NCBI GenBank assembly: GCA_964525295.1
Contig: CAZGEO010000001.1
Coordinates: 9,671 to 73,670 of the forward strand
DNA from: an uncultured Candidatus Saccharibacteria bacterium
Lineage (GTDB): Bacteria; Patescibacteriota; Dojkabacteria; GCA-002793355
Direction: 5' to 3'
Length of the DNA: 64,000 bases
The position numbers and the translations under genes are program-made. Below are positions 44,006-52,299 of this stretch, in pieces; the stretch's first letter is position 1, and each line of letters opens with the position of its first letter. Under the pieces are notes generated by a model that made no database searches, had not been told where the DNA came from, and worked only from the letters and a program-made list of their open reading frames with translations.

Positions 44006-44563
44006 CTACTTAAATAACGAAGTTACACTTTCTAATTCGCTTACACCTATGACAACATTGCTCCCATTAACCTTTTCGTTTGCATTAATTGGGTATGGGT
44101 TGCAGTCTGGTTTTTCAATAGCAAAATCTTCAACAGAATAACTCTTTTCACAAACTGTACAAATAAGTTTGTTTCCTTCTTGCACATAACCTTTCCCATA
44201 CTTTGCACACTGTTTATTTCCATTAGCTGCAACTCTAAATTTACCTTCAGCATCTTTTAAGACCATAAAATAGACTGTTGTTCCATCAGGTAAAGTTGCA
44301 TTAAAGAACTTTACTTTGTTCACCTCAAATCCAACAGTAGGGATCGAAACATTTCCATCAACCACTTGAAGCGTCTCACCCTTATTTCCTGTAAATACAT
44401 ACGCTTCAGTTTCTTCTGCTGTATTTGTTGGCGTTGCATTTGATGTTGGCTGAGCTTGGATTGTTAAATTGTCAGACTTTGGCTTATTATTCAATGAATA
44501 GAAAACTAAACCACCAACAACAATTGCTACAATGATCAAACCTCCTAATACTTCTTTTTTCAT
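44006..44563 (-). CDS. Membrane-anchored Cys-motif protein, possible metal-binding
   Basis: N-terminal TM, a Thr/Pro-rich linker, and the C-terminal Cys pattern CAKYGKGY...CTVCEKSY...C. It is the last gene of the copper operon. Confidence 0.45.
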   Translation of the reverse strand: MKKEVLGGLIIVAIVVGGLVFYSLNNKPKSDNLTIQAQPTSNATPTNTAEETEAYVFTGNKGETLQVVDGNVSIPTVGFEVNKVKFFNATLPDGTTVYFMVLKDAEGKFRVAANGNKQCAKYGKGYVQEGNKLICTVCEKSYSVEDFAIEKPDCNPYPINANEKVNGSNVVIGVSELESVTSLFK

Positions 44564-44582: not shown

Positions 44583-46895
44583 TTAAATCTTTACAAACTT
44601 CAATCTTAGTGAATTTGTAACAACTGAAACACTACTAAATGCCATTGCTAAACCTGCAAATACTGGATTTAATAGAATTCCCCAAATTGGAAAGAGTAAT
44701 CCAGCCGCTAACGGAATACCAACAACATTGTAGATAAATGCCCAAAAGAGATTCTGTTTGATTGTAGCCATTGTTTTCTTTGACAACTTGATAGCTTGTG
44801 GAATCTTTGAAATATCTCCTGCAAGTAATGTTATATCTGCGGATTCAATTGCAACATCCGTACCTGTTCCCATCGCAATTCCTACGTCAGATTGAGCAAG
44901 TGCAGGTGCATCATTTACACCGTCTCCTGCCATTGCAACTACTAAACCTTCTGCTTGTAATTCACGAACCTTGTCTGCTTTTTCACTTGGCAATACTTCT
45001 GCAAAGACTTTATCAATGCCAACCAAATCTGCTATGTATTTAGCCGTATTTCGATTATCACCTGTAAGCATTACGACTTTAACACCAAGCTTATGTAATC
45101 TTGCAACTGCATCGGCACTTGATTCTTTAATTGTGTCTGAAATTGCAATTGTTGCTAAAACCTCTTTGTCATCAGTGAAGAGTACTGGCGTTTTGCCTTG
45201 TTTCGACAATTTATCAATTAGATCCTTATCGTAATCAAGCTTTAAATCGTCCATAAGTTTCAGATTTCCTGCAAAGTACATCTTTCCATCAATAGTACCT
45301 TTCAATCCTTTACCTTCAATGATCTCGAAATCATCAACTTTTACAAGTTGAACATCCATAGATTTTGCCTTTTCCTTGATTGCCTCAGCTAATGGATGCT
45401 CCGAGTTCTTTTCTAAAGAAGCTATTAATTTTAGTATTTCAACTCCATCAATAGACTCATTTGCATATGAAGGAAGGATATCTGTAACTTCAGGCTTACC
45501 TTTTGTAATTGTTCCTGTTTTGTCAACAACAATGGTATTAACTTTGTGTAACTTTTCTAAGCTTTCAGCATTTTTAATGAGAATACCGTTTTGAGCTCCT
45601 TTACCAACACCAACAATGATTGCTGTAGGAGTAGCAAGTCCTAAAGCACATGGACAAGCAATCACCAAAATCCCAACAAAGCAGAGTAATCCGTAAGTAA
45701 GTGCTTCATTAAATGGCATAAATTGACTTCCAACTGCCAACCATATTATCAACGTTAAAACAGCAATGACAAGCACAACCGGAACAAATACTCCTGAAAT
45801 TTGATCTGCTAACTTTTGTATTGGTGCTCGTGATCCTTGTGCTTCTTCTACCATTTTAATAATACTTGCTAAAAGAGTATCTGAACCAACTTTCGTAGCA
45901 TTAAACTTGAATGTACCTTGCTTATTTATTGTTCCTCCAATAACTTTGTCTTCAACTGTTTTATCAACTGGAATTGGCTCGCCAGTTACCATAGATTCAT
46001 CAATTGAAGATTTACCTTCGATAATAACACCATCTACAGGAATTTTACCTCCTGGTTTAACAATGACAACATCGTCAAGTTGCACCATATCAATTGCTAT
46101 TTCAATTTCTTCTCCATTTCTTTCAACTAATGCTGTCTTTGCTTGAAGATTCATTAACTTTTCTATTGCTTCTCCTGTTTTGAGCTTTGATCGTGCTTCT
46201 AGATATTTACCGAAGACAATAAAGCCAATAACAACGATTGCGACATCAAAGTAATTTGTTTCAGGAAGTCCTGCTGAATGTGCAATATTAGGGAATAAAA
46301 CAACAAATGAACTATAGAGATATGCCGTTAATGTACCAATTCCAATCAAAGTGTCCATATTGGCAACTTTATATTGAATAAAGTTTACTATGCCCTTTAA
46401 AAAAGGTTGTCCAATCCAAAACAGCACTACGGAAGAAATAATCATCATCATTGTAGAGTACAGTTGCATTGGGAGAAAGAATGCTGGAACGACATTTGGG
46501 AATGATTTTGCACTAATTTCCCACATCATTAATACAAAGATCATCAATGCAATCGGGAGGACAAATTCAACTTCAGATTTTTGTTTATCCAACTCCTTAA
46601 GTTTTTCTTGCTTGCTTTTATCAAGTCCTAAGTGTTCTGCATGTTCATTTGCTGACATATTTCCATGACTCATTGGCATTGCAACTTCATTTTGCAATTC
46701 ATAGCCAAATGGTTTTATTCTTTCGCTCATTTGGTCTATTGATGTTGCAGTTTTATCAAACTCAATAGTAGCTTTCTCTGTGCCATAATTCACTTTAATT
46801 GAGTCAACTCCATTTACTTTGGAAATTGCTTTCTCAATGGTTAATGCACAACTTGCACAGTGCATTCCCTTAATAGGTATTGTTATTTTTTCCAT
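44583..46895 (-). CDS. copA: Copper-translocating P1B-type ATPase
   Basis: N-terminal [17 protein letters not shown], the CPC motif in [18 protein letters not shown] and [10 protein letters not shown]. Confidence 0.92.
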
Positions 46896-46919: not shown

Positions 46920-47480
46920 TTATTTGACTTCGTACCAATCAGTTCTCATTTGACTTAATTTGATCTTACCTTTGTGTAAGAAGTCTTCGACTGCGTTTGC
47001 ATTGTTCAAGATTTCATTTCTTGTTGATTTTTTTTGAATCTCCATAGTCATTTCAATTCCTGATTCGTGATGGGTAATGAGTGCATTTAAAAATCTCCAA
47101 TCCAACTTTTCATCATACGTACCTAAATTTGGAACTTCCATTGAAGCGACTTCTTTTGTATCGTTATACCAATCCTTCTTCCATTGATATAATTCAGCAA
47201 TTGCTTTTGGTTCATCTGTTAAGATCATATTTGCAAGATCTTTAATATCCTGTCTCCGAGATTCATTTTTAACCTGTTCTGCTAGTTTCATTGCACCTTT
47301 ATGATGTGCAATCATGGCATTTATGTATCGTAAATCAACATATTTATCTGCTTTACCTAAATCTACCATTTGTTTGCTTTCGTATTGATCCATTGAATAC
47401 TGGGGTGACACGACATAGCCGAGACCAGTTCCAAGTACAAAGAAAATAATGACGAGCGAAATTGTTATATATTTTGACAT
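46920..47480 (-). CDS. DUF305-family protein (copper-resistance associated)
   Basis: N-terminal TM and two repeats carrying HH motifs (MIAHHKGAM and LITHHESGI). Confidence 0.7.
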   Translation of the reverse strand: MSKYITISLVIIFFVLGTGLGYVVSPQYSMDQYESKQMVDLGKADKYVDLRYINAMIAHHKGAMKLAEQVKNESRRQDIKDLANMILTDEPKAIAELYQWKKDWYNDTKEVASMEVPNLGTYDEKLDWRFLNALITHHESGIEMTMEIQKKSTRNEILNNANAVEDFLHKGKIKLSQMRTDWYEVK

Positions 47481-47498: not shown

Positions 47499-47723
47499 TT
47501 AAGCAATAATGTTAAGATTAGAGTATTTATAGTCTGTTAACTCTTTAAATACTTCTTGAAGATCTTTTTCAACTTCCTCAGTATTTTTAGAAGTCACAAA
47601 GGTAGCAACATTTTTTTCAGAATCAACAGAAACTTCTTCTAGCCCAATATCTTCTAATGACATGGTTATTAAGTTTTTGCATCCTGAACAGTGCATTCCT
47701 GAAATATCTATTTGGTATTTCAT
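47499..47723 (-). CDS. copZ: Copper chaperone (HMA domain, CopZ-like)
   Basis: 74 aa with GMHCSGC. Confidence 0.85.
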   Translation of the reverse strand: MKYQIDISGMHCSGCKNLITMSLEDIGLEEVSVDSEKNVATFVTSKNTEEVEKDLQEVFKELTDYKYSNLNIIA

Positions 47724-47732
47724 ATTTAAATA

Positions 47733-48155
47733 TTAATTAAAATTAATTACAAAACTATACATTCCCATACTACAAGAACCTCTTAAGCTGGTACCTGCAT
47801 TTTGAGAAGTAATTTCAATATCAGTATTACCACTTGCAGGTAATGTCTTTGAAATTCCTAAACTTAGGATTCTAAATGCTCTTTCGCAACCGTAAACACC
47901 ATCTGATTTCATACGAATAATTGTTGGAACACCTGCTTTGGCGTTAATTGTACGAGGTGAATAGCCACCACTAACTGTAACTTCAATAATTTGTTTATCT
48001 CCTGAAGTGCTGACGACATTTGAACTTGCACCTTTTACATCAGCTGAACGATTATTCCCAGAACCAACGAGAAAGACAAATCCAATCATAACAATTACGG
48101 CAATTCCAATCAATAAACCTTTACCGTCAACAGTTATAGTTCTAACTTCTTGCAT
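47733..48155 (-). CDS. Membrane-anchored His-less cupredoxin-like domain protein
   Basis: N-terminal TM followed by SGGYSPRTI...GC...SCSMGMY, paralogous to the C-terminal domain of the upstream HMA-permease (SGYSPNTI...GC...SCWMGMV). It resembles the cupredoxin_1 YyC..pgH..GMkG pattern with the His segment deleted. Confidence 0.5.
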   Translation of the reverse strand: MQEVRTITVDGKGLLIGIAVIVMIGFVFLVGSGNNRSADVKGASSNVVSTSGDKQIIEVTVSGGYSPRTINAKAGVPTIIRMKSDGVYGCERAFRILSLGISKTLPASGNTDIEITSQNAGTSLRGSCSMGMYSFVINFN

Positions 48156-48193
48156 ATACGTGGTTTGTTTTAATATTATATATTTCCAAAACT

Positions 48194-49660
48194 TTATTCC
48201 ACAACCTCAATAATTCCAGTTACCATTCCCATCCAACAGCTAAATCTATATTTCCCGACTTTTGTTGGAGTAAACTCTTTAACTGCTACTTTTCCAGTTT
48301 CAAGATCTATCTGACCATCAAAAAGACCTTTTGAGATAATGGCATTTGTACAGCCTGAAGTCCCAGTATCATTAATTTCCCATCGAACAGGGACATTCAC
48401 TCTTACTTTGATAGTATTAGGTGAGTAACCTGAAGCACTTGCCTCCATTTTTACAATTTGTTTTCCATTAACAATTTCGGGAAGAGTGCTATTTGAAGAT
48501 CCAGTGTTATTACTCTGGTTTACGCTGCTTTGTCCAAAACTAATGTCATTTAAATTTGGTAGTCCGAGTGCAATAAGTTGCATGTTGACTGTTGATAGTC
48601 CAAAGAGTATGACGAGAATACCAACTAACTTCATGAAATTTTCAGCAACATGTGCTTTTTCATACATCTTTGTGCTAGACATTCCAATGAATAAAAGCAT
48701 GGGAGAAGTTCCTAATGCAAACAATGACATTATTAAAGCTCCACGAATAGGATCTCCTGATACCATGGCTAACCCCTGAGCTGTAATGGTGAATCCACAA
48801 GGAAGAAAGAATGTAAGTGCCCCCATAATCATAGGCATGTATTTGCCTGCAAAATTTGATTCATCAGCAATATACCTTGAAAATACTTTTGGCATTCTAA
48901 ATTGAAATCTTTGAAAAGCCTTAATACCAAGCATTTGTAAACCTAACAACACCATCATAATTGAAACGAGAATTGCGACAAGAGCCGTAAATAATGGAGA
49001 AATGGTAAATATACTTCCAATTGCACCTAAAACACCTCCAAGTATTGCGAATGAAACAATTCTTCCGATGTTAAACAATAGATGTGGTTGTAATTTCTCT
49101 GAAAAAGAATTACTTGTTGAATGTAACTCATACCACTGCTTTGACATTGACAAAACAATTCCCCCAACAAGAGCCGCACAACTCGAAAACCCTGCTACAA
49201 TGCCAAAAAAGAAAAACGCAGGTAAGGCAGAGGTTGCATTAACAGAGACAGCAGAAGCTAAACCAAATCGTTCAAATAGTTTATAGATTAAGAAAATACC
49301 TGCAACTCCAATTATAATAAAAAGGATTGAGTTGATTTTGCGTGTGCTAAAAGTTAACTTACCATTTTCAATTTGAAACAATTTTTCAACATCCTCTTGA
49401 ACTTGGTCTTCAGTGCCAGTTTCGTCAAAGCTATATCCTTCAGTTTTAAACAATTTATTCAATAGTTCTAAAGTGGGCTTCTCTCCTTTATATTCTATTT
49501 TTACCTTGTTGTCTGAAGTAGAAGCATCTACACCTTCAATGTTATTTTGTTTTATAAGTTTTTTTTCAATGAGGACTTCACAACTTGCACAATGCATTCC
49601 CTTTACTGAGTAACTGCATTCTTTTAGTTGAGGCTCTGATTTTTTCGATTTACTTTTCAT
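48194..49660 (-). CDS. HMA-domain::polytopic permease (TauE/SafE- or CcdA-like, paired Cys)::cupredoxin-like domain fusion protein
   Basis: N-terminal GMHCASCEVLIEKKL, a membrane core with AGFSSCAALVGG and FFLPCGFT, and a C-terminal FSCWMGMVTGIIEVVE module. Confidence 0.6.
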   Translation of the reverse strand: MKSKSKKSEPQLKECSYSVKGMHCASCEVLIEKKLIKQNNIEGVDASTSDNKVKIEYKGEKPTLELLNKLFKTEGYSFDETGTEDQVQEDVEKLFQIENGKLTFSTRKINSILFIIIGVAGIFLIYKLFERFGLASAVSVNATSALPAFFFFGIVAGFSSCAALVGGIVLSMSKQWYELHSTSNSFSEKLQPHLLFNIGRIVSFAILGGVLGAIGSIFTISPLFTALVAILVSIMMVLLGLQMLGIKAFQRFQFRMPKVFSRYIADESNFAGKYMPMIMGALTFFLPCGFTITAQGLAMVSGDPIRGALIMSLFALGTSPMLLFIGMSSTKMYEKAHVAENFMKLVGILVILFGLSTVNMQLIALGLPNLNDISFGQSSVNQSNNTGSSNSTLPEIVNGKQIVKMEASASGYSPNTIKVRVNVPVRWEINDTGTSGCTNAIISKGLFDGQIDLETGKVAVKEFTPTKVGKYRFSCWMGMVTGIIEVVE

Positions 49661-49680: not shown

Positions 49681-49702
49681 GGCTACTACAAGTGTAGTAG
49701 CC
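49681..49702. promoter_or_regulatory. Cop box operator: perfect 22-bp palindrome containing TACAAGTGTA
   Basis: GGCTACTACAAGTGTAGTAGCC overlaps a predicted minus-strand promoter (-35 TTGACA at 49714-49719, -10 TACACT at 49691-49696). It lies about 21 bp upstream of the HMA-permease start. Confidence 0.7.
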
Positions 49703-49731: not shown

Positions 49732-50685
49732 TTAATTTGATGGACAAGAAGTTGGAGTGTCCATAGAATGCACAGAGCACAGATTTTCTGAAGAATTACT
49801 TTGGAGATTATTAACAAATATTTGAATACAATCTTCGATATGTTCACAGTTATAAAATTTCACCGTATATACGAAAACAGGTAAGCTGACCAAGGCAAAC
49901 AAAAAGAATGATGATAAAGTAGTAACTAGTTTAAAGTTAAATTTCTTTGCTCCAACTAATACAGGTATTCTTTCGGGCATATTACTAAAATGTGCTAAAT
50001 TTGGTTGCATGGTCATGGAAAAGTCATTACTCAGAATCGAGTATAAGGCTTCAATAATAGGTCTTTTCTTTCCTAATATGTTTTCTGAGTGTTCATCACT
50101 TTTTAATTCAACAGATGTGAAGTAAATATCTTTCAGCTTGTTCTTAAAAGGAAACTGAGGAAGTATATTATTAATGAGTTGTACAATAAATCCTCTCAAA
50201 GGATCATGATCTTTGCAATGCGAAAATTCATGATGCAAAACCGCCTTCAACTGTTCAGAAGTTAATGAACTCTTTAGTTTTGAGGAAATATATACTTTCG
50301 GTGTAAAGAATCCTGCTGTAAAGACAGAAGTTTCCTTCGAATCTAAAGTGATAACAGCTTTATTAGACTTACTGTTTAAAGAATTCAAAAACTTTTGGGA
50401 GAAAAATAATTGTTTAAGTGAGACTAAAATTCCCTTTAATGCAATAAATAATAGACTCAATGAAAGTAATCCAAATAGGACAGATTGAATAAAAGCTTCA
50501 CTAAAAATAATTGAAGTAATTTCAGAACGATTTTTTATAACTCCGTCTATAAGAAAGAGTGTTTGCATAAAAAATCCTGGTAAAGCTCGTACAGAGAGAA
50601 GGGTTAATAGAGTAACGTAGGCAAAACTAGAAATAACATAAATTGCAAAAAGACGATTTGTTTGGCTACTATAAATTTTATTCAT
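49732..50685 (-). CDS. M56-family (BlaR1-like) membrane metalloprotease lacking a penicillin-sensor domain
   Basis: Four N-terminal TM helices and HEFSHCKDHD (HExxH). It is 317 aa, whereas BlaR1 is about 585 aa. It overlaps the upstream repressor gene by 8 bp. Confidence 0.7.
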   Translation of the reverse strand: MNKIYSSQTNRLFAIYVISSFAYVTLLTLLSVRALPGFFMQTLFLIDGVIKNRSEITSIIFSEAFIQSVLFGLLSLSLLFIALKGILVSLKQLFFSQKFLNSLNSKSNKAVITLDSKETSVFTAGFFTPKVYISSKLKSSLTSEQLKAVLHHEFSHCKDHDPLRGFIVQLINNILPQFPFKNKLKDIYFTSVELKSDEHSENILGKKRPIIEALYSILSNDFSMTMQPNLAHFSNMPERIPVLVGAKKFNFKLVTTLSSFFLFALVSLPVFVYTVKFYNCEHIEDCIQIFVNNLQSNSSENLCSVHSMDTPTSCPSN

Positions 50686-51043
50686 TTTTATTTAAAAAGT
50701 CTTTGAGAAGTTTAGCATTTTTGCTATCACTTTTCACAGAGTCAATAAACTGCGAAATTGCTAACTCTCCATATGTATCTACCAACGAATTAAAAATTCC
50801 ACCTAAATGTTTACCAGCAAATTCTTCCTTACACTCAGTATATGTATATACATACGAATTACCGTCTGGAATTCTTTTAAGAATACCTTTTTTCTCCATT
50901 CTAGTCATTACAGTCATTACGGTGGTGTATGCTGACTTTTCTTTTAACTGTTCGAGTACAGACCTAACATTCATGGGCTCTTTTGAAGCCCAAATGATTG
51001 ATAATATTTCTTGTTCGAGGTCACCAAGCACTAAAGATTTCAT
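50678..51043 (-). CDS. copY: BlaI/MecI/CopY-family winged-helix transcriptional repressor
   Basis: LGDLEQEILSIIWASKEPMNVRSVLEQL...YTTVMTVMTRMEKKGIL matches the penicillinase-repressor family. The start was moved to MKSLV because the operator lies inside the longer ORF. It has no C-terminal CxCxxxxCxC. Confidence 0.75.
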   Translation of the reverse strand: MKSLVLGDLEQEILSIIWASKEPMNVRSVLEQLKEKSAYTTVMTVMTRMEKKGILKRIPDGNSYVYTYTECKEEFAGKHLGGIFNSLVDTYGELAISQFIDSVKSDSKNAKLLKDFLNKNE

Positions 51044-51068: not shown

Positions 51069-51080
51069 CTACAAGTGTAG
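51069..51080. promoter_or_regulatory. Cop box operator (CTACAAGTGTAG palindrome) upstream of the repressor gene
   Basis: Shares the TACAAGTGTA core with the 49681 palindrome. It lies about 26 bp upstream of the repressor ATG. Confidence 0.65.
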
Positions 51081-51190: not shown

Positions 51191-51387
51191 GAGCGGGCGA
51201 CGAGATTTACCCACAGGGCATCAATTCAGTTTACGAATCACTTCCTCAATACTTCGTCGTTCTTCGGACTTCATTGTCGAACTTTCGTTCTCATCTCGTA
51301 CATAACAAAAGAGGGCTGCTATCCACCTTTCAGGTGAACACCAGCCCTCAAGCGGGGCACTGGAGGAAGTCCGAACCGCACTTAGTA
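51191..51387. repeat. Repeat copy C: 15-nt copy of the tRNA-Gly 3' end, then R1 with 33-bp core, then R2 module
   Basis: gagcgggcgacgagatt matches tRNA-Gly 3' end plus flank. Core at 51272-51304, and R2 agcggggcactggaggaagtccgaaccgcacttagta at 51351-51387. Confidence 0.7.
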
Positions 51388-52054: not shown

Positions 52055-52226
52055 TCATATTTCAGTTTAAATTGATATTCTATTTTACACTTTACAAAGA
52101 TATTTGGGAAATTGAATGAAAAACAATAGAGAAATAGTTGTCAAGTATTAAAAAGAGAACTATTGTTAATTGTGACTTTTTAAAAGAAATTTATTGTCTG
52201 AGATATATCGTCTACGATGTATATAA

Positions 52227-52299
52227 GCGGGCGACGAGATTCGAACTCGCGATCTTCTGTTTGGAAAACAGACATTCTAGCCGCTGAACTACGCCCGCA
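52227..52299 (-). tRNA. tRNA-Gly (anticodon UCC)
   Basis: Minus-strand cloverleaf: acceptor GCGGGCG/CGCCCGC, anticodon stem TCTGT/ACAGA with loop TTTCCAA, T-arm GCGAGTTCGAATCTCGT, discriminator U. Confidence 0.88.

Follow-up and report, generated by a model that had tools for sequence, protein, structure and literature searches.

The 64,000-nucleotide stretch analysed here (the window: contig CAZGEO010000001.1, positions 9,671 to 73,670, of assembly GCA_964525295.1, from an uncultured Candidatus Saccharibacteria bacterium placed by GTDB in Dojkabacteria) carries a cluster of eight co-directional minus-strand genes, running from 51043 down to 44006 in the open reading frame (ORF) list and domain scan. 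These encode, in order, a BlaI/CopY-like repressor, a BlaR1-like protease, a fusion of HMA, DsbD_2 and CupA-type domains, a membrane-anchored CupA-like protein, CopZ, a DUF305/CopM-like protein, CopA and an FtrD-like protein. A public contig contained the exact fusion protein and an identical operon arrangement. What appears to be new, judging from sequence, is a widespread and unstudied architecture that combines HMA, DsbD-like and predicted outward-facing CupA-type domains and is the usual companion of CopA in bacteria of the candidate phyla radiation. The fusion gene and the anchored CupA-like gene comprise the following features (aa, amino acids; TM, transmembrane helix).

48194..49660, minus strand: gene of the HMA-DsbD_2-CupA fusion, 488 aa (ORF, Pfam, AlphaFold2 model)
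49451..49612, minus strand: HMA domain of the fusion, residues 17-70, with GMHCASC (PF00403, E=2e-7)
48596..49219, minus strand: DsbD_2 membrane domain of the fusion, residues 148-355 (PF13386, PF02683)
49178-49180 and 48797-48799, minus strand: codons of the fusion gene for Cys161 (TM1) and Cys288 (TM4), respectively
48197..48469, minus strand: C-terminal CupA-type domain of the fusion, residues 398-488 (phmmer, Foldseek)
48350-48352 and 48224-48238, minus strand: fusion ligands C437 and C475-W-M477-G-M479, respectively (alignment to CupA)
47733..48155, minus strand: gene of the anchored CupA-type protein, 140 aa (ORF, PF13473, AlphaFold2)
48063-48116 and 47736-48002, minus strand: TM helix (residues ~14-31) and domain (residues 52-140) of the 140-aa protein
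47886-47888 and 47760-47774, minus strand: 140-aa protein ligands C90 and C128-S-M130-G-M132, respectively

The original prediction, made from the sequence before any search, described a duplicated cupredoxin-like module, and both minus-strand ORFs were present as described. The two modules aligned at 30% identity (E=4e-9) with GC...SC(S/W)MGM in register. Both were matched by Pfam Cupredoxin_1 (PF13473, cutoff 27 bits), at residues 398-481 of the fusion (34.7 bits) and residues 45-122 of the 140-aa protein (35.4 bits). Sequence searches of PDB chains with either module returned Streptococcus pneumoniae CupA (2MRY/4F2E) first, followed by the N-terminal metal-binding domain (MBD) of CopA (4F2F). 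The fused domain alone gave E=2.5e-7 to CupA (2mry/4f2e) and 5.7e-6 to CopA-MBD (4f2f) in phmmer. The 140-aa protein gave E=1e-3 to CupA as a single sequence; a profile of 34 homologues of its family, searched against the PDB, gave E=1.8e-9 to CupA and E=1e-3 to CopA-MBD, and only these passed E<=0.1.

The AlphaFold2 model of the 140-aa protein had a predicted local distance difference test score (pLDDT) of 84.7, with the domain above 92. Foldseek searches of the PDB placed 4f2e first for the fused domain (template modelling score, TM-score, 0.89; root-mean-square deviation 1.1 Å), with 4f2f also at the top, and 4f2f and 4f2e first for the 140-aa protein (TM-score 0.86). The top matches of the two modules spanned root-mean-square deviations of 1.1-2.1 Å. 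Structure prediction, proposed earlier as a check, therefore gave both modules the cupredoxin-like fold of CupA and CopA-MBD (TM-scores 0.86-0.89), in agreement with the Pfam match. A Cupredoxin_1 protein of Bacillus anthracis (4HCF/4HCG) shares the Pfam family and the fold (TM-score 0.7-0.8) but, unlike CupA, was matched much more weakly in sequence (E=0.3-1.3).

CupA binds copper in a binuclear Cu(I) centre, at site 1 (bis-thiolate) through C74 and C111 and at site 2 (Cys/Met2) through C74/M113/M115 (PMC5646241), and its ligand motif has been defined (PMC5552934; PMC5646241). All four CupA ligands aligned exactly with C437/C475/M477/M479 of the fusion and C90/C128/M130/M132 of the 140-aa protein in HMMER alignments. 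The latter four were invariant in 34 stand-alone homologues, and CxMxM was kept in 116 of the 120 best homologues, as CWMGM in 104. A chance motif was ruled out, the residues being invariant across hundreds of homologues. Identity to CupA and CopA-MBD was approximately 21-29%, and the loop reads C(S/W)MGM here as against CGMNM in those proteins.

The 140-aa protein is free of histidine, as are residues 398-488 of the fusion, and the type-1 ligand set of His, Cys, His and Met is absent. A cysteine (C437/C90) holds the first-ligand site of a type-1 centre, and the loop takes the form C-x-M-x-M. A type-1 blue copper protein was ruled out because the His ligands are missing, and the Cys/Met site proposed in the original prediction appears from the alignments to be the set that binds Cu(I) in the solved relatives CupA and CopA-MBD. 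Its further proposal, that the His-containing segment had been deleted, was not needed: in close homologues of equal length CWMGH or CSAGH stands in place of the motif, and within the clade substitution suffices. Taking sequence and models together, both modules are very probably CupA-family Cu(I)-type domains with a role in copper resistance. The CupA/Cupredoxin_1 family was described in 2013 and the module is a member of it; the most eye-catching part of the finding is thus already explained, and the outcome that the original prediction had itself named as counting against it, a profile match to a family already described, was obtained.

The outer site varies among distant members of the fusion family (P0178, P0217, P0245, P0176, P0199, P0237, P0202 and P0213), where GCMSTIM...CAMG(V/I)P, CWMGH and CSAGH occur. 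In some distant members a Cys-free extra membrane segment replaces the cupredoxin domain, and some are without any outer domain. The listed members all keep the HMA domain and the membrane Cys pair.

The fusion is laid out as HMA, TM0 (residues ~108-128), DsbD_2 with six TM helices, a flexible linker and Cupredoxin_1. HMA scored 31.8 bits and DsbD_2 120.4 bits (PF13386, residues 148-355, E=1e-34, cutoff 24.9). DsbD_TM was also matched (PF02683, E=6e-9, 35.9 bits, cutoff 27.1), colinearly over profile positions 4-208 of 219. The AlphaFold2 model (pLDDT 76) contained seven long helices. The fused organisation noted originally, an N-terminal HMA domain and a permease with paired membrane cysteines, was confirmed (PF00403, PF13386, and the motifs AGFSSCA with C161 in TM1 and FLPCGF with C288 in TM4). 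In 58 aligned close homologues C24, C27, C161, P287, C288, C437, C475, M477 and M479 were invariant. Across 139 representatives of 50%-identity clusters C161, P287 and C288 were 100% conserved, and M236 (91%), Q295 (83%), M311 (78%) and M243 (71%) were conserved to a lesser degree; N359 was conserved too. A Mer-type transporter was rejected, as MerTP scored 31.6 bits (cutoff 180) and MerP 19.7 bits (cutoff 92.6), and the NCBIfam MerTP, MerP and MerA models matched only the HMA stretch.

In relatives of 94-95% identity (L002 7440-9416 and L003) the fusion bears an extra 41-aa Cys-rich tail (GCGCGGGGGNSCGG), and the anchored CupA-like gene is preceded by two added genes, for a bPH_2 plus Schlafen/AlbA_2 protein and a DUF2085 membrane protein. 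The window (48156-48196) is without the tail and both genes, and a 38-bp spacer remains. Many of the more distant fusion homologues end in GCGCGG.. or GCPCCG tails.

CupA is described as a chaperone anchored in the membrane, where it captures copper on the cytoplasmic side and passes it to the cytoplasmic domain of CopA (PMC7558416, PMC5646241, PMC5552934). The 140-aa protein resembles it in having a single N-terminal anchor and in being encoded between a BlaI/CopY-family repressor and copA. For comparison of the anchors, 119 CupA-class proteins were retrieved, of which 77 were full-length with a clear helix. All 77 had more Lys/Arg after the helix than before it (mean difference -3.9; for example MLNSIVTIICIALIAFILFWFF/KKPEKSGQK), a charge pattern that predicts N-out, C-in. 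In the window-type stand-alone family (n=43) the N-terminal flank was more basic in 26, less basic in 7 and equal in 10 (mean difference +0.8). In five stand-alone homologues the helix ended in a lipobox-like LxxC, a motif that by its sequence marks a putative exported lipoprotein. The fusion had no signal peptide, and its Lys/Arg-rich loops share a side with HMA; over 58 homologues the mean Lys plus Arg count was 14.6 on the HMA side and 3.6 on the other. The seven helices and this bias predict that HMA lies inside and the fused cupredoxin domain outside. Both cupredoxin domains probably lie outside the cytoplasmic membrane, unlike CupA, which faces the cytoplasm, and one of the two is fused to HMA and DsbD_2. 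Of the relay from HMA through membrane cysteines to an extracytoplasmic domain that was originally drawn, the layout is upheld by these results; the passage of copper along it is not, in view of the DsbA-like neighbours described below.

The fused architecture was searched for in other genomes using one genome per species, and the genome count is a lower bound. The fusion was found in at least 549 species genomes, mostly of Patescibacteria and some of Actinomycetota, and its nearest relatives among the matches listed (94-95%) were in Patescibacteria genome BroJett019 and a Dojkabacteria metagenome-assembled genome. The three-domain architecture was common, with 3,431 matches among 8,000 candidates scored. 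All three domains were present in 115 of the best 120; four were without a precomputed Cupredoxin_1 match and one partial protein lacked HMA. Searched alone, the membrane domain matched 4,621 clusters (50% identity), and 300 of these reached E<=1e-30. A separate anchored CupA-like copy was rare, being confined to the closest relatives of the window and a few others. Fusion homologues were named only generically, for example as "sulfite exporter TauE/SafE family protein".

A total of 81 loci around fusion genes were compared. copA was detected in 69. Most of these have it directly downstream of, and co-directional with, the fusion gene; a few have other genes in between or copA upstream, and most loci without copA end at a contig edge. 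Literature searches returned no description of an HMA-DsbD_2-CupA fusion and nothing relevant on copper genes of the candidate phyla radiation. The nearest described proteins were COG2836 (HMA+DsbD_2+DUF2318), which belong to the CsoR copper meta-regulon in gut Firmicutes and are likewise uncharacterised (PMC4938975). COG2836 has the same HMA and DsbD_2 core and copper-responsive control. It differs in its fused outer domain, which is PF10080 rather than of the CupA type, and in its regulator, which is CsoR rather than of the BlaI/CopY type; in the window operon PF10080 is encoded by a separate gene. CupA has been called restricted to a few streptococci (PMC7558416, PMC5646241), in contrast to the CupA-type domains found here in Patescibacteria and Actinomycetota. 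CupA-class proteins with CGMNM and the cytoplasm-facing pattern WFFFGPKKAR (P0386-P0422) also occurred outside streptococci, with high-GC-like composition, so the published confinement seems too narrow even for the cytoplasmic class.

A DsbA-like thioredoxin-fold gene (CP[YF]C) was directly beside the fusion gene in 15 of the 81 loci and somewhere in the locus in 18. In 11 loci the product was a protein of HMA, a single TM and a DsbA-like domain. This protein (~330 aa, with GIHCGSC in HMA and CP[YF]C) is encoded between the fusion gene and copA (L017 7569-8567; L007 5378-6391; L009, L011, L015, L019, L026, L030, L045, L079). A DsbA-like gene without HMA was directly upstream of the fusion gene in L005, L016, L041 and L062, and a split copy was downstream of it in L013. 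No description of the HMA-TM-DsbA-like architecture was found in the literature. Because HMA here sits on single-TM proteins that are unable to conduct metal, its presence is by itself no evidence for a copper path. In the genomes that have it, the DsbA-like neighbour would be a conventional client for the DsbD-like domain.

The operators and remaining genes of the cluster are as follows.

49681..49702, minus strand: operator 1, a perfect 22-bp palindrome GGCTACTACACTTGTAGTAGCC with a cop box
51069..51080, minus strand: operator 2, cop box CTACACTTGTAG, within a TTGGCA-17-TACACT promoter
50678..51043, minus strand: BlaI/CopY-family repressor, 121 aa from ATG (PF03965, E=1e-22)
49732..50685, minus strand: BlaR1-like M56/M48 membrane metalloprotease, HEFSH, with a short Cys/His-rich C-terminal tail
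47499..47723, minus strand: CopZ-like HMA chaperone, 74 aa (PF00403, E=1e-8)
46920..47480, minus strand: membrane-anchored DUF305/CopM-like protein, 186 aa (PF03713, E=6e-19; NF049983 CopM, E=6e-12, below cutoff)
44583..46895, minus strand: CopA, P1B-type Cu(I) ATPase (ORF, domain scan; CPC, YN and MxxSS motifs visible)
44006..44563, minus strand: membrane-anchored FtrD-like Cys-rich protein (PF10080, formerly DUF2318; E=3e-16)

The consensus of the cop box is TACAnnTGTA. Three matches were present in the 64 kb, two of them in the promoters of the repressor and fusion genes, and their position there marks the cluster as a copper-responsive efflux operon. Operator 1 lies 21 bp upstream of the fusion gene, where it overlaps the -10 element of a promoter with the sequence TTGACA-17-TACACT; operator 2 likewise overlaps the -10 element and sits just upstream of the repressor gene. 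The 12-mer of operator 2 recurred at equivalent places in L001-L003, with one or two copies in L071, L072 and L080. In the closest relatives a third copy lies upstream of the anchored CupA-like gene, which has its own cop-box promoter. The repressor matched TIGR02698 CopY_TcrY below its cutoff (E=1e-10, 41.8 bits, cutoff 122), and the L001 gene call was also 121 aa. Its sequence contains a single Cys only, without the C-terminal CxC...CxC copper site of CopY. Instead of a penicillin-sensor domain, the BlaR1-like proteases (HExxH) have a short tail in which 2-4 Cys are conserved alongside His/Met. The repressor-protease pair was upstream of the fusion gene in 11-12 of the 81 loci (window 49732-51043, minus strand; L002, L003, L005, L009, L017, L023, L030, L052, L072 and L080), and may constitute a proteolytic copper switch of the BlaR1/BlaI type.

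copA is flanked by two more genes for anchored, putative metal-binding proteins. The FtrD-like protein (44006-44563) carries four Cys, and PF10080 was found in 19 of the 81 loci. The DUF305/CopM-like protein (46920-47480) is rich in His and Met. A strong GC-rich hairpin with a T-run after it (GAGGGCTGGTGTTCACCTGAAAGGTGGATAGCAGCCCTC TTTTGTT), on the minus strand at 51305-51349, closely precedes the operon and resembles a terminator belonging to the unit before it. Some 1.1 kb upstream of the operon, at 52226-52298 (minus strand), is a gene for tRNA-Gly(TCC). A scan with Rfam gave nothing relevant near the operon.

The explanation favoured overall, tentatively, is that the copper-efflux operon combines outer CupA-type sites with a DsbD-like reductant relay. 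CopA would pump Cu(I) out, and at the cell surface it would be captured and buffered by the tethered outer Cys/Met domains. Through Cys161 and Cys288, the DsbD-family domain would carry reducing equivalents outward from the cytoplasm, where DsbD/CcdA proteins draw their electrons from thioredoxin, and by these equivalents the outer bis-thiolate C437/C475, and probably C90/C128 of the anchored copy, would be kept reduced or re-reduced. The cytoplasmic HMA would then serve as a Cu(I) docking or regulatory module, perhaps as a tethered CopZ for CopA, and not as the first station of a metal path. The relay of reductant itself is put forward with caution. It is consistent with the colinear DsbD_TM match and with the invariant Cys in TM1 and Pro-Cys in TM4. 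The other outer partners, namely the FtrD-like domain and the Cys-rich tails, are likewise Cys-based and were counted in its favour. The Cys pair of CupA is redox-active in vitro, and what re-reduces it is not known (PMC5646241). In copper resistance, DsbD-family reductases are already known from ScsB/ScsC (PMC10907172), and the proposed relay has its parallel in DsbD/ScsB acting on the Cu-binding protein ScsC. Like ScsB/ScsC (with CueP) and DsbD/CcdA, the fusion has a DsbD-family domain whose TM1 and TM4 hold one Cys each. It shares with these pathways a copper-stress context and an extracytoplasmic Cys-based copper-binding client, and an ScsC-like neighbour occurs in 15 of the 81 loci. Servicing of CueP by a DsbD/ScsB-type protein was reportedly described by Subedi et al. 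in 2019. Unlike the proteins of these pathways, the fusion belongs to a separate Pfam family (DsbD_2) and has no periplasmic domains of thioredoxin or Ig fold; its client would be the fused cupredoxin, a cytoplasmic HMA is added, and the host, unlike theirs, is probably monoderm without a periplasm.

Several points weigh against this explanation. No thioredoxin-fold gene was found in the operon or in the whole 64-kb window, and the known substrates of DsbD/CcdA are thioredoxin folds, not cupredoxins. Pro-Cys at both membrane cysteines is the signature of the DsbD/CcdA family, whereas the fusion has Pro-Cys only in TM4 (LPCG, Pro invariant), TM1 reading SSCA without Pro. A membrane-domain profile gave zero matches to PDB sequences even at E=10. 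Most other members of the LysE transporter clan, to which DsbD_2 belongs, carry metal ions, and the conserved membrane Met, Gln and Asn would fit a Cu(I) path. HMA was the most constant partner in this DsbD_2 clade, being present in 136 of 150 representatives, forms without an outer Cys domain included, which would suit the handing of metal to the membrane Cys pair. Finally, the flank charges of the 140-aa copy in the window are balanced (+2/+2), so its orientation rests on 90%-identical relatives.

A good part of this evidence suits a relay of copper in place of reductant, in which Cu(I) would move by ligand exchange from the HMA CxxC to Cys161/Cys288, helped by Met, Gln and Asn, and on to the outer CupA-type site. 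The fusion would then be an ATP-independent, possibly proton-coupled Cu(I) exporter of the LysE superfamily beside CopA. The three stations are genuine soft-metal ligand sets with all six Cys invariant, HMA is retained even where the outer Cys domain is missing, and M236, M311, M243, Q295 and N359 are conserved in the membrane. Relatives carry the names "UreH domain-containing" or "TauE/SafE" transporters, and the resemblance of the layout to MerP/MerT and to the HMA/CPC arrangement of P1B ATPases was also counted for the copper relay. The analogy with MerP/MerT lies in an HMA CxxC station and intramembrane Cys that pass on a soft metal; the membrane part, however, is not homologous, and MerP is periplasmic with transport directed inward. 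The HMA+DsbD_2+DUF2318 proteins of Firmicutes are annotated for heavy-metal transport in the CsoR copper regulon (PMC4938975). Against a copper relay, such an exporter would duplicate the CopA of the same operon and has no evident energy coupling, its membrane domain is homologous to the electron-transferring DsbD with Cys in TM1 and TM4, and literature searches gave no characterised Cu(I) carrier of this fold. The HMA-TM-DsbA-like neighbours suggest thiol-redox chemistry and mean that fusion to HMA is no proof of a metal path. Because of the DsbA-like neighbours, these proteins included, the reductant relay was ranked slightly higher, and the transport of copper by the fusion is considered somewhat less likely.

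The other readings are weaker. Both cupredoxin domains could be plain CupA orthologues, cytoplasmic tethered Cu(I) chaperones feeding CopA, given the same fold, ligands, N-terminal anchor and operon type (repressor, chaperone, copA) and the ambiguous flank charges of the 140-aa copy. Pneumococcal CopA, however, bears a matching cupredoxin domain, whereas the N-terminus of the window CopA is an ordinary HMA domain (residues 5-66) with zero Pfam match to Cupredoxin_1, so that a CupA-like donor would find no cupredoxin partner on it; the operon also has its own CopZ. In addition, the seven helices and strong positive-inside bias place the fused domain opposite HMA, five homologues of the anchored copy are lipobox-like, and the charge bias of that family is opposite to that of all 77 CupA-class proteins, which makes this reading improbable. 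Still less probable is a delivery role, in which extracytoplasmic cuproproteins would receive their copper from, or be assembled by, the outer domains, and the fusion would act after CopA as an assembly factor. Some P1B ATPases serve cuproprotein biogenesis (PMC8475189), and the family does occur in Actinomycetota; set against this, cop-box and repressor control is typical of stress-induced efflux, the operon holds no cuproenzyme gene, and the distribution centres on small-genome Patescibacteria. An electron-transferring blue-copper cupredoxin can practically be dismissed. The cupredoxin fold and weaker fold matches to CuA domains, AcoP and auracyanin would allow it, but both type-1 His are absent, Cys replaces the N-terminal ligand, the nearest solved relatives are Cu(I) chaperone domains and a respiratory context is absent.

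The CupA fold and ligand set extend far beyond a few streptococci, mostly in DsbD-fused form and apparently across the membrane from the position known for CupA. If the outward orientation and the coupling of the Cys pairs hold, the fusion would rank as the chief accessory of patescibacterial copper efflux, and would either bear on the question of what re-reduces the CupA Cys pair or reveal a thiol-based conduit for Cu(I). Were the fusion instead a copper translocator, it would represent a new class of Cu(I) carrier in the DsbD/LysE superfamily and, throughout the candidate phyla radiation, the standard companion of CopA. The fusion proteins form a large and compact family without confusing paralogues, and so offer a good experimental entry to the uncharacterised DsbD_2 family.

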